DNA of 7,220 nt from a virus (IMGVR_UViG_2585427790_000002), one strand, 5' to 3'; positions 2,093-5,504 are shown, counted from the stretch's first letter. Notes: a model not told the origin generated them from the letters alone. Translations and numbers: made by a program.

Positions 2093-2553
2093 TATCTGCA
2101 CTGCTCATTAATATACTTCTGGGTTCCTTCCAGTTGTTTTTGCATAGTGATCAGCCTCTCTCTGAGGGTGAAATAATCCCGTTCAGCGGTGTCTGCCAGT
2201 CGGGGGGAGGCTGCATTATCCACGCCGGAGGCGGTGGTGGCTTCACGCACTGACTGACAGACTGCTTTGATGTGCAACCGACGACGACCAGCGGCAACAT
2301 CATCACGCAGAGCATCATTTTCAGCTTTCGCATTAGCTAACTCCTTCGTGTATTTTTCATCCAGTGCAGCAACATCACGCTGGCGCATCTGCATGTCAGT
2401 AATTGCCGCGTTCGCCAGCTTCAGTTCTCTGGCATTTTTGTCGCGCTGGGCTTTGTAGGTAATGGCGTTATCACGGTAATGATTAACAGCCCATGACAGG
2501 CAGACGATGATGCAGATAACCAGAGCGGAGATAATCGCGGTTACTCTGTTCAT
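2092..2553 (-). CDS. rzpD: Rz i-spanin (inner-membrane spanin subunit), 153 aa from ATG 2553
   Basis: N-terminal transmembrane segment ([18 protein letters not shown]) followed by a charged, coiled-coil-like periplasmic domain. ATG at 2553 overlaps the endolysin stop (ATGA). The ORF-track start at 2565 is a GTG four codons upstream. Confidence 0.9.
2151..2333 (-). CDS. rzoD: Rz1 o-spanin (outer-membrane lipoprotein spanin subunit), embedded in the +1 frame of Rz
   Basis: 60-aa ORF wholly inside Rz in a different frame. Signal peptide with lipobox VVVGC, then a proline-rich mature segment (PPPPPAW...PPPDW), the typical Rz1 signature. Confidence 0.8.
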
Positions 2554-3047
2554 TGCTGACCCCACAAACAGATTTCACGCTCAATCTCACGACGAGTCAT
2601 GAGACCTTTCCATTGCTTACCGCCAGAATATGTCCAGCGACGTAGCTGATCACATGCGCCTTTGATATCGCCCTGGTTTATTTTGCGAAGAAGCGTCGAT
2701 GTTCTGAAATTGCCAGCGCCCACGTTGTAAACGAACGAGTAAAGAGCGCCGCGCGTTGTTTCCGGTATATCAACTTTTATGTACGGGTTAATTTGTCTGG
2801 CGACCGTGGCAAGGTCTTTATTCAGGAGGGCTTTGCATTCTGCTTTGGTATACGTTTTACCGAGCATGATGTCTTTTCCTGTATGCCCGTGACATACAGT
2901 CCATACACCAACAATATCTTTGTATGGTATGTAGCTGACACCTTCCAGACCATCGTTACCACTTGGGCCAGTGATTAACACTGATGCTATAGCAATTGCT
3001 CCGCCACCAATAGCAGCAGCAACGGCTTTTCGTAATGATGGAGGCAT
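2550..3047 (-). CDS. rrrD: SAR endolysin (phage-21 R-type lysozyme with N-terminal signal-anchor-release domain), 165 aa
   Basis: Gly/Ala-rich weakly hydrophobic N-terminal segment ([20 protein letters not shown]) characteristic of a SAR domain, followed by a lysozyme catalytic region ([17 protein letters not shown]). Near-identical to my recollection of phage 21 R / DLP12 RrrD. Start overlaps the holin stop (TAATG). Confidence 0.93.
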
Positions 3048-3262
3048 TATTCACCTCTCGCAGCCTTGCGCTTATCTTCTTTAATCTTGAAATAAAGGTT
3101 TGTCAGGTACGTCAGCAGGCCAAATACCAGGCTACCCAGCACACCTATTGCTGCCCACTGTGAGGGCGTGACTTTATCGAGCAGCTGTAAAAACCAGTAA
3201 CCGGCACTACCTGCTGAGGTGCCATAGGCGACACCCGTTGTTAACTTATCCATGGATTTCAT
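3047..3262 (-). CDS. essD: Class II pinholin (phage-21 S-type) with dual-start motif MKSM (antiholin from Met1, holin from Met4), 71 aa
   Basis: Sequence [24 protein letters not shown]...[22 protein letters not shown] has two transmembrane segments and a charged C-terminus. RBS GAGGTGGGG precedes ATG 3262. The ORF-track start at 3307 adds 15 residues without an RBS and is rejected. Confidence 0.9.
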
Positions 3263-3649
3263 AACCCCACCTCGCAGACAAAGCGGGTGTAAATTGAGGG
3301 AATACAACGTATCGCAAAAAAGCAGAAACGTAACAGACTCGGAGTCAGTGAATAACTCAGGTATTGAGTTATCAGCTAATATCGAGACTCAGAAAATGGA
3401 AAAACCAGCTCGACGGCGGGTTTAAGCTGTGTGACGAAGTAACCACTCTTAACAGCATAACCAATTTTTTACGTACGTAAACCACTGAATGATATTTATG
3501 AGAATGCTACCGAGTGTTCAAAACACCACCACAAATACATAAGAAAACCTCAACAAATAACCAATAAATAATTTCAGGCGTTATTTTTAGTTGATTTAAA
3601 TTAAACTGCCGAATTATAGAGCCTCCATAAATAACAACTATTAATATAA

Positions 3650-3849: not shown

Positions 3850-4932
3850 ATGAAAAAATTAACAGTGGCAATTTCTGCTGTAGCTGCATCAGTACTGATG
3901 GCGATGTCTGCTCAGGCAGCTGAAATTTATAATAAAGACAGTAACAAGCTGGATCTATATGGGAAAGTTAATGCCAAGCACTACTTCTCCTCTAATGATG
4001 CAGATGATGGTGATACTACTTATGCCCGTCTTGGCTTCAAAGGTGAAACCCAAATCAACGATCAACTGACTGGTTTCGGTCAGTGGGAATATGAATTCAA
4101 AGGCAACCGCGCTGAATCTCAAGGCTCCTCCAAAGACAAAACCCGTCTTGCATTTGCAGGCCTGAAATTCGGGGACTACGGCTCAATCGATTACGGCCGT
4201 AACTACGGTGTAGCATATGACATCGGTGCGTGGACTGACGTTCTGCCAGAATTCGGTGGCGATACCTGGACCCAAACAGATGTGTTCATGACTGGTCGCA
4301 CCACTGGTGTTGCAACTTATCGTAACAACGACTTCTTTGGTCTGGTTGATGGTCTGAACTTTGCTGCTCAGTATCAGGGTAAAAATGACCGCACTGACGT
4401 AACTGAAGCTAATGGTGATGGTTTCGGTTTCTCCACTACTTATGAGTATGAAGGATTCGGTGTAGGTGCAACCTATGCTAAATCTGACCGCACTAATAAT
4501 CAGGTTATCTACGGTAACAACAGCCTGAATGCATCTGGTCAAAATGCTGAAGTATGGGCAGCTGGTCTGAAATATGATGCGAACAACATCTATCTGGCTA
4601 CCACCTATTCTGAAACCCAGAACATGACTGTTTTTGGTAATAACCATATTGCCAACAAAGCACAAAACTTCGAAGTAGTTGCACAATATCAGTTCGACTT
4701 CGGTCTGCGTCCGTCCGTTGCTTACCTGCAATCTAAAGGAAAAGACTTGGGTGCGTGGGGTGATCAGGACCTGGTTGAATATATTGATGTAGGTGCAACC
4801 TATTACTTCAACAAAAATATGTCCACTTTTGTTGATTACAAAATCAACCTGATTGATAAGAGCGATTTCACGAAAGCATCTGGCGTTGCTACCGATGATA
4901 TCGTTGCTGTAGGTATGGTTTACCAGTTCTAA
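3850..4932 (+). CDS. nmpC: General bacterial porin of the OmpC/OmpF/PhoE family (prophage-encoded NmpC/Lc-type), 360-aa precursor, apparently intact
   Basis: Signal peptide [23 protein letters not shown] then AEIYNKD..., porin motifs and C-terminal ...VGMVYQF with terminal Phe. ATG at 3850; the ORF-track start at 3790 is a 20-codon extension. No internal stop or IS. Confidence 0.93.
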
Positions 4933-4940
4933 TTTGATTA

Positions 4941-4979
4941 CTAAAAGATATGTTGCGGGAGGCTTTGCCTCCCCAACAT
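4941..4979 (-). terminator. Candidate intrinsic terminator on the minus strand (tR'-like, downstream of the late promoter); the same hairpin sits directly 3' of the nmpC stop on the plus strand
   Basis: GC-rich stem GGGAGGC/GCCTCCC extended by ATGTTG/CAACAT, loop TTT. On the minus strand it is followed by AUAUCUUUU. A second hairpin AAGTGGCT-CCCTCA-AGCCACTT lies at 4982-5003. Confidence 0.4.
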
Positions 4980-5039
4980 ATAAGTGGCTCCCTCAAGCCA
5001 CTTCCTTTAGGAGCACAACCTTGCTTCTAACTATATAAA

Positions 5040-5120
5040 CCTTCTGTTATATATTACCCTTTATTTTTGGGGGCGTTGCAACGCCCCATTTTTAATAATT
5101 TTTAGTAAACAATTGGCATA
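5040..5120 (-). promoter_or_regulatory. Candidate Q-dependent late promoter (pR') and qut region immediately downstream of Q; exact -35/-10 not resolved
   Basis: Placed by analogy with lambdoid phages, where pR'/qut lies just 3' of Q. Minus-strand candidates include TTGCAA (5081-5076) with GTAATA/TAATAT 17-19 nt downstream. Purely positional and motif-based. Confidence 0.3.
5069..5105 (+). terminator. Rho-independent terminator for the plus strand (likely nmpC terminator): GC hairpin plus T-tract
   Basis: GGGGCGTTGCAACGCCCC (perfect inverted repeat) followed by ATTTTTAATAATTTTT on the plus strand. On the minus strand the hairpin is followed by A-rich sequence, so it is not a good minus-strand terminator. 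Confidence 0.55.
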
Positions 5121-5504
5121 TTAATTAGAGTTATTAACAACGATATCCATCTCTAACCGGATATCTAATGCCATTAACATCCCTTCAATTATGCCCTCAG
5201 CCTTCTGTAACCTTTTCCCGATATAACCATCAGAGCAGCAATGCTTACCTGCCAGTGACATGAATGTCATACCGACTACATAATAATCTACTAATAAATC
5301 GTGCAAATCGCTGTTGTTCTTTTTCAGACGGGCCATGCACCCGCAAATAATCATCGCGTCATCGTCACAACATTGCGGGCGAGATTTTACTTTTGAAGTA
5401 ATTAATCCCTTAAAACCGGCGGCAATGGACGACCAGGTCACATCTTCATGATTATTAGCCGCCCACGCTCCCCAACGCTCAAGAACCATCTGAATATCAC
5501 GCAT
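5121..5504 (-). CDS. quuD: Late-gene antiterminator Q (phage 82/DLP12 QuuD type), 127 aa
   Basis: [24 protein letters not shown]... with Cys-rich segments ([15 protein letters not shown]). ATG at 5504 preceded by GGAG. The ORF-track start at 5519 is a TTG five codons upstream. Confidence 0.92.

Follow-up and report, generated by a model that had tools for sequence, protein, structure and literature searches.

Hairpins between the late antiterminator gene Q and the porin gene of a lambdoid phage match the porin 3' untranslated region (ipeX), with a putative late promoter beside the holin gene

The window, by which we mean the whole stretch of viral DNA that was analyzed (IMGVR_UViG_2585427790_000002; 7,220 nucleotides), corresponds, in minus-strand reading, to the late-control region of a lambdoid phage. 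The minus-strand order is a ninB-like gene, ybcO, rusA, and Q (5504-5121), followed by a 188-bp spacer (5120-4933). Past the spacer comes a porin gene (3850-4932), which is on the plus strand, and after a further 587 bp there follow an S21-type holin gene (3262-3047) and the genes for a SAR-type lysozyme and Rz. The genes that matter for what follows are these:

5121-5504, minus strand: late antiterminator gene Q (QuuD type), 127 amino acids from MRDIQ (Pfam PF06530, E = 4e-53).
3850-4932, plus strand: phage porin gene (NmpC/Lc type), 360 amino acids, starting MKKLTVAIS (Pfam Porin_1, E = 4e-153).
3047-3262, minus strand: S21-type holin gene with the dual start MKSM (Pfam PF04971; annotation of the homologous genes of 434B and DLP12).

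The Q open reading frame reaches 5519 with a TTG start in the ORF lister. The Q protein of the window has the same sequence as QuuD in many E. coli prophages (100% identity) and is 77.8% identical to the Q protein of 933W and about 29% identical to Q21, with a distant match to the solved Q21 structures 6P18 and 6JNX (E = 7e-7). Judged by these alignments, it is a QuuD/Q933-type protein. The porin and Q genes are convergent, and related phages annotate the porin as porin, OmpD, or NmpC. The same arrangement is present in the E. coli K-12 prophage DLP12 (quuD, nmpC, essD), in phage PA-2, and in many sequenced coliphages, and the spacer was found in 2,515 of 5,426 complete E. coli genomes. The 1986 PA-2 record (J02580) carries an "ORF1" (2428-2637, minus strand; window 4771-4980, minus strand) that overlaps the porin 3' end and the hairpin called H1 below; it is probably not a gene, because it is not preserved in the window as an open reading frame of at least 50 amino acids. 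An apparent module boundary at window position 5057 (hit H65) was rejected, since it is an ISKpn26 insertion.

The spacer contains the following hairpins, listed in plus-strand order:

4948-4981, plus strand: H1, ATATGTTG-C-GGGAGGC / TTT / GCCTCCC-CAACATAT, 15 bp with a bulged C4956.
4982-5003, plus strand: H2, AAGTGGCT / CCCTCA / AGCCACTT, 8 bp, directly abutting H1 (-11.1 kcal/mol, z = -2.4).
5007-5030, plus strand: H4, 9 bp, found by folding and absent from the original prediction (-9.7 kcal/mol, z = -4.5).
5032-5053, plus strand: H5, weak and AT-only, from folding.
5070-5087, plus strand: H3, GGGGCGT / TGCA / ACGCCCC, 7 bp, of which 6 are GC (-13.9 kcal/mol, z = -2.6).

The original prediction, made from the sequence of this stretch, had described hairpins with T-tracts on one strand only, and direct reading of the sequence confirms that they are real. 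The GGGAGGC/GCCTCCC stem that it named is the core of H1. Next to H1, the minus strand reads CUUUUAGU, a U-run with 4 consecutive U and 5 U in the next 8 nucleotides, and the plus strand reads AAGUGGCU. Next to H3, the U-run is on the plus strand (AUUUUUAAUAAUUUUU), and the minus strand reads CAAAAAUAAA. H1 has a stability of -23.3 kcal/mol (z = -5.2) on the plus strand and of -22.7 kcal/mol (z = -5.5) on the minus strand, as compared with dinucleotide shuffles. Folding of both strands, which had been proposed as a check, likewise found the whole spacer to be far more stable than dinucleotide shuffles (z = -5.9 for the minus strand and -8.0 for the plus strand; none of 200 shuffles reached this stability), and the plus-strand fold of 4930-5099 has a stability of -61.8 kcal/mol (z = -7.75). 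A search of the whole window against Rfam at E ≤ 1 returned no matching family.

Natural variation follows the predicted pairing. In an alignment of 26 natural variants, variable positions account for 7 of the 92 paired columns, as against 21 of the 77 unpaired ones (Fisher p = 7.6e-4). The changes are concentrated in loops, the bulge, and linkers, and the hot spots are the H1 loop, the H3 loop, and the H1 bulge. The natural changes in H1 are in the loop (4964), in the bulge (4956), or register-neutral (4973). The upper two pairs of H2 are missing from the CFT073-type variants, and a common A/G polymorphism at position 5011 in H4 converts A-U to G-U (18 versus 7 sequences). The H3 stem is constant save for one G-C to G-U change in 1 sequence, while its loop is TGCA, CTCA, TTCA, or TTCC. 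There are no compensatory pairs or double changes in these hairpins among the 26 variants, which are 96% identical. A set of 80 viral-contig loci found by means of the Q protein, all of which are 100% identical in Q, is useful for polymorphism only.

The terminator scan flagged H3 on the plus strand as the sole terminator within the spacer. By our terminator score, which is a rough d'Aubenton-Carafa-type score with modern energies and is uncalibrated, H3 on the plus strand is the best in the spacer (-5.2) and H1 on the minus strand is second (-17), with all others below -40; the scores of two 933W hairpins are +22 and +24. The terminator feature is as follows:

5070-5093, plus strand: H3 with its A-U5 tract, porin/ipeX intrinsic terminator (AUUUUU after the stem; terminator scan; K-12 Term-seq).

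The Term-seq data (Adams et al. 2021, supplementary file 1) are from uninduced K-12 MG1655, whose nmpC gene is interrupted by IS5; the sequences listed there run 10 nucleotides past each 3' end, which creates an apparent 10-nucleotide offset. Strong K-12 3' ends on the porin strand are reported at 574,367 and 574,366 (Adams et al. 2021). These are window positions 5093 and 5094, at the last U of the H3 U5 tract, with the coordinates checked on the K-12 sequence. Another strong porin-strand 3' end, at 574,476 on the K-12 minus strand (Adams et al. 2021), is window position 4984 on the plus strand, which is 3 nucleotides past H1 where the plus strand has no U-tract, and it probably arises within the ipeX region by processing or by protection from exonucleases. 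In addition, the Rho table of Adams et al. 2021 contains a bicyclomycin-sensitive region at 574,331 (minus strand), which is at about window position 5129 (plus strand), inside antisense Q/quuD and just past H3; this Rho-dependent region would be a second barrier to porin-strand readthrough into Q. Because K-12 3' ends are in its U5 tract and a Rho region lies beyond it, we conclude that H3 is a working, Rho-backed terminator of porin-strand transcripts. The assignment of H3 to the porin in the original prediction is therefore supported by a GC stem, a U-tract on the plus strand only, and K-12 3' ends at window positions 5093/5094. The accompanying claim that the porin transcript halts before Q is likewise supported, as the end at about 5093 is 28 nucleotides short of the Q stop codon.

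The porin-strand transcript from this spacer has a close relative that is already known. The spacer is 96.8% identical to the K-12 DLP12 nmpC-quuD spacer and to the flank of PA-2 lc (J02580) over 186 to 251 nucleotides (K-12 strain C600). IpeX is a 167-nucleotide RNA of DLP12 that is also present in PA-2 (PMC12197685), and reviews describe it as a part of the porin transcript that is made from the porin promoter and then processed, and that lowers OmpC and OmpF (PMC12197685; PMC5069750; PMC8065619). In the window, 161 to 164 nucleotides separate the porin stop codon (4930-4932) from the last U of the U5 tract (5093), which fits the reported 167 nucleotides. Castillo-Keller, Vuong and Misra (J Bacteriol 2006) are said to have located ipeX in the interval that begins at the stop codon of nmpC and reaches to the Rho-independent terminator predicted for that gene, and IpeX reportedly acts on ompC without obvious base-pairing and, for ompC, independently of Hfq. 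The window element shares with the IpeX of DLP12 and PA-2 its position (3' of the stop codon of an nmpC/lc-type porin gene, on the porin strand, before Q, in K-12 and PA-2 alike), the 96.8% identity, the terminator hairpin, and the stop-to-terminator length. It differs in the H3 loop (TGCA in the window versus CTCA in K-12 and PA-2), in the H1 loop (TTT versus GTT), and by a 1-nucleotide indel before H1, and the porin gene is intact in the window, in contrast to the IS5-split gene of K-12. We therefore assign the region as follows:

4933-5093, plus strand: porin 3' untranslated region matching the ipeX locus, reaching from the stop codon as far as the intrinsic termination point mapped in K-12.

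On these sequence grounds, the spacer is an element that has already been described, the porin 3' untranslated region/ipeX locus with its terminator, and we infer that IpeX is processed and functions in the window phage as well. The simplest role for H1 is that of a hairpin that gives IpeX structure or protects its end. Like other 3'UTR-derived enterobacterial sRNAs, IpeX is released from an mRNA 3' end and ends at the mRNA's own Rho-independent terminator. CpxQ, DapZ, and SroC are 3'UTR-derived enterobacterial sRNAs of this kind, which share the mRNA terminator and have an A/U-rich stretch before it. In contrast to typical seed-bearing 3'UTR sRNAs, IpeX is far more structured.

To locate the late promoter, we compared the DNA downstream of Q from about 30 species-representative genomes and several phages. 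The informative diversity came from the species-representative genomes. One promoter block is common to nearly all of the collected loci and accompanies about 25 diverse Q homologues, the 933W Q included. It consists of a palindrome, TTTACG(AT/TA)CGTAAA, which supplies the -35 element with its left half; a -10 element after a further 16 bp; GWTAAGAGTG; a small inverted repeat; CACACAGCTTA; and a GC hairpin with a T-run, the stem sequence of which varies between genera but stays self-complementary. In 933W, the annotated pR' is this promoter block, and it comes directly after Q. In the window, the block is at 3481-3400, between the porin and the holin, 1.6 kb away from the hairpin spacer and 185 nucleotides upstream of the holin ATG, so that the holin is the first late gene downstream of it:

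3468-3481, minus strand: palindrome TTTACGTACGTAAA, with the -35 element TTTACG at 3481-3476; presumed Q-binding element (exact family match).
3447-3459, minus strand: -10 element TATGCT (3459-3454) and predicted start A3447, with a 16-bp spacer as in 933W (column alignment).
3400-3446, minus strand: initial transcribed region GTGGTTACTTCGTCACACAGCTTAA and remnant of the pR'-proximal terminator (blastn, alignment).
3420-3400, minus strand: the terminator remnant itself, CCCGC/CGTCGA/GCTGG plus T5 (homologous to the hairpin of the family block).

The family palindrome occurs once in the window, with 0 mismatches, at 3468-3481. The window block aligns column for column with 933W (-10 TATCAT, GATAAGA) and with 13 other loci, and TTTACG..CGTAAAA is invariant in the 15 aligned loci, which come from six genera. 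By blastn, 3400-3482 has an 83-nucleotide similarity to the 3' end of the Q gene in more than 300 Stx phages. The palindrome with its -35 element, the family-spaced -10 element, the initial transcript, and the orientation toward the lysis genes are thus all present at 3481-3400. The 933W start was placed 7 nucleotides after the -10 element by counting 258 nucleotides back from the annotated 933W terminator, 258 nucleotides being the length of StxS reported by Sy et al. (PMC7547250); the corresponding pR' start in the window would be at about A3447. The DLP12 lysis operon has been described as controlled through a Q-type antiterminator, and its regulatory region was cloned from just upstream of essD (PMC7918800). 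The expert annotation of phage 434B marks no pR' or ipeX feature in the corresponding region.

The palindrome is a strong candidate for a Q-binding element that is recognized by a dimer. Q21 uses direct repeats, whereas the QuuD/Q933 family has a palindrome. A 14-bp perfect palindrome overlapping the -35 element was observed in Escherichia, Shigella, Trabulsiella, Pantoea, Citrobacter, Xenorhabdus, Providencia, and Morganella, and it is invariant in Q933/QuuD loci (1923-1936 in the 933W locus, L083, and at about 1,890-2,010 in each of L094-L118).

The pR'-proximal hairpin is CCCGC/GCGGG in K-12, CFT073, and Lambda_4C10 and CCCGC/GCTGG in the window and PA-2. The G-to-T change leaves the terminator of the window at -5 to -8 kcal/mol (z about 0), and its d-score is -52 versus +8 for K-12. 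Because the GCTGG mismatch cuts the stem to about -5 kcal/mol, late-leader termination in the window phage may be leaky, or another signal may be used; there is no second StxS-type terminator before the window holin. Term-seq of uninduced K-12 lists no 3' end for the predicted pR'-proximal terminator of DLP12, so that constitutive activity of this promoter is putative. The leaders of lambda (6S RNA) and of Stx phages (StxS) start at a constitutive promoter after Q and give a short terminated RNA with Q-dependent readthrough. Unlike in those phages, the 933W-type pR' module of the window, at 3481-3400, is beside the holin, and its proximal terminator is weakened. In the 933W locus, the proximal family terminator is at 1983-2005 (about +27 to +49) and a second terminator is at 2186-2214; StxS ends at +258, at the second terminator, despite the first 933W hairpin (PMC7547250).

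The distance between Q and pR' is also variable in other phages. Shigella phage POCJ13 has about 780 nucleotides between Q and the promoter block (1882-2660), including a 594-bp open reading frame, and Citrobacter amalonaticus has about 140 nucleotides (1870-2008), including a hairpin, so the Q-pR' junction appears to be a recurrent site of insertion of unrelated DNA. Just past the Q stop codon of the window, the string GTTTAC-TAAAAAT (5098-5110, minus strand) resembles the family string GTTTACGATCGTAAAAAT without its central 5 bp; it may be what remains of an original Q-proximal pR' after the porin cassette was inserted, or it may be a chance match in an AT-rich stretch. A different situation was observed in phage 1H12 (1879-1960; also L119), whose Q protein is 87% identical over residues 1 to 120 and then has a different C-terminal helix, RSDCWIGRMLQKAEG. 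The 1H12 Q gene is followed by a promoter of a different type, TTGCTG-N17-TAATGT, and then by TGTTAGAAT, and after this promoter there is a close copy of the second 933W terminator (GCCAGCCTCCCC...GGCTGG). This suggests a specificity switch within one Q family, and phage 1H12 may be nearer to the phage 82 class.

The original prediction had proposed that a late promoter 3' of Q produces a short 6S-like leader that ends at H1 as tR', with Q antitermination needed to reach the lysis genes. Spelled out, the promoter would be constitutive and lie in the spacer, and Q-dependent readthrough would cross the antisense porin gene. This has some attractions: pR' is directly after Q in lambda, 21, 82, and 933W; H1 on the minus strand is stable (-22.7 kcal/mol, z = -5.5) and is followed by CUUUUAGU; and the minus strand of the spacer contains an invariant TAATAT (5056-5051) and the -10-like TATAGT (5035-5030). 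However, the promoter scan found no sigma-70-like site in 4933-5120 on either strand. The lone -35 candidate for TAATAT, TTGCAA, is 19 bp away in the variable H3 loop, where natural variants have TTGAGA, TTGAAA, and TGGAAA, and it is gone from the CFT073-type variants; TTGCAA-N19-TAATAT was consequently rejected as a spacer promoter for its 19-bp spacing and its nonconserved -35 element. Since the loop that would hold the -35 element varies while the H3 stem stays nearly constant, the pattern of variation indicates selection for a hairpin and not for a promoter. The family palindrome, TTTACGWWCGTAAA, has no match in the spacer within 3 mismatches, and the closest spacer string, TTTACTAAAAATTA, has six, while the exact palindrome with all of its flanking conserved blocks is present at 3481-3400. 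As a terminator, H1 on the minus strand has a stable stem and the tail noted above, but its d-score of -17 is below threshold and compares with +22 and +24 for the 933W hairpins. Late transcription from a pR' in the spacer would also meet the actively expressed porin gene head-on over a distance of 1.1 kb. Other templates for a spacer promoter fit no better. The published features of phage 82 pR' (an initial AAA, a -10-like element at about +9 to +14, and GCC at +15-17; PMC5001585) do not fit the spacer, and the window Q is not of the 82 type; the Q21 QBE, which consists of direct repeats of TGAGCA (PMC6606751), is absent, and the window Q is only about 29% identical to Q21. Finally, K-12 Term-seq has no Q-strand 3' end within 568,708-578,444 (LB, optical density of 0.4) and no Q-strand entries at 5745xx in three conditions; Q-strand transcription may be very low or absent in this cryptic, uninduced prophage. 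This negative result is weak, because the predicted DLP12 pR'-proximal terminator likewise gives no 3' end. The promoter block is thus missing from the spacer and occurs once, at 3481-3400, and a late promoter upstream of the holin, 185 nucleotides from its ATG, is what the original prediction had said would refute its account. We consider a spacer promoter with H1 as tR' to be extremely improbable. The original reading of the hairpins was half right: the porin terminator on the plus strand is borne out by H3 and Term-seq, and the tR' and late promoter on the minus strand are contradicted by homology.

A more limited role for H1 on the minus strand deserves consideration. H1 might belong to IpeX and also be a factor-independent terminator, though not a tR', of unmodified transcription leaving Q, which would shield the porin gene from antisense transcription and make the spacer a bidirectional insulator between convergent genes. 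The stem is stable, with 5 U in the next 8 nucleotides on the minus strand; by the rough terminator score, H3 on the plus strand is the one hairpin in the spacer that ranks above it; and most variants retain the U-run or extend it to CUUUUUCGU. Moreover, a terminator inserted in the K-12 spacer had no extra effect on IS5 ins5CB-dependent transposition, which the authors ascribed to pre-existing intrinsic terminators (PMC11677980). Against this, the U-tract is short and interrupted (and is CUUUGAGU in one variant), a 15-bp bulged stem is atypical of intrinsic terminators, the score is below threshold, K-12 reports no Q-strand 3' end, N-modified early transcription would pass H1, and the plus-strand RNA already accounts for the same bases. 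On balance we regard this dual role as doubtful. The proposal that H1 works in both directions, setting or protecting an IpeX-related end on the porin strand while terminating unmodified Q-strand transcription, is similarly tentative and, in our estimate, unlikely. If it were true, H1 and H3 together with the Rho site in antisense Q would turn the spacer into a bidirectional insulator, which would allow a moron expressed in the lysogen to reside between the gene for an antiterminator and the promoter on which that antiterminator acts. A weak Q-independent promoter with TAATAT (5056-5051) as its -10 element could instead give a cis-antisense RNA of about 100 nucleotides, with complementarity to the IpeX 5' half, that ends at H1 on the minus strand and modulates the stability of IpeX or of the porin mRNA. 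TAATAT and the A-rich tract upstream of it are invariant in the 26 variants, and H1 is at a suitable distance of about 100 nucleotides; however, there is no acceptable -35 element or extended -10 element, the invariance is common to nearly the whole spacer (96% column identity), and the K-12 plus strand has no 3' end within 568,708-578,444 (LB, optical density of 0.4) and no 5745xx entries in three conditions. We view such an RNA as very unlikely.

The interpretation that we favor, and hold to be highly probable, is that the spacer is the porin 3' untranslated region/ipeX locus on the plus strand, that the late promoter is elsewhere, at 3481-3447 on the minus strand, and that the porin-ipeX moron lies between Q and this promoter. 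Transcription in a lysogen would begin at the porin's own promoter and run through the porin open reading frame, and the 3' tail would then fold into four to five hairpins (H1, H2, H4, H5, and H3). Transcription would stop at H3 and its U5 tract, at about 5093; because this is 28 nucleotides before the Q stop codon on the opposite strand, Q would not be read antisense. The stable tail fragment of about 167 nucleotides, IpeX, would lower synthesis of the host porins OmpC and OmpF, as described in the literature. After induction, Q would act in trans at 3481-3447, and late RNA from about A3447 would pass the remnant of the proximal terminator straight into the holin gene and never cross the porin. 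The porin promoter, porin, ipeX, and terminator would constitute a 1.64-kb moron inserted in reverse orientation between Q and pR'; since the cassette sits between Q and its pR', late transcription need not cross it.

This cassette resembles phage morons such as lambda bor and lom in that it is an autonomous promoter-gene-terminator unit, expressed in the lysogen, that leaves its neighbors undisturbed; its own promoter has CRP sites annotated in PA-2. Unlike bor and lom, it lies between an antiterminator gene and the target promoter of the antiterminator, and its 3' untranslated region has, according to the literature, a regulatory RNA function. The hairpins thus appear to belong to an element that is already known, and homology contradicts their reading as a tR' with a late promoter. 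The main value of this result is correct annotation: the hairpins that follow Q in DLP12/PA-2-type phages are not the late-gene switch. Nearly half of the complete E. coli genomes carry a hairpin spacer of this type, and those who engineer or interpret the control of late genes, lysis, or toxins in such prophages should examine the region corresponding to 3481-3400 and not the Q-proximal spacer.
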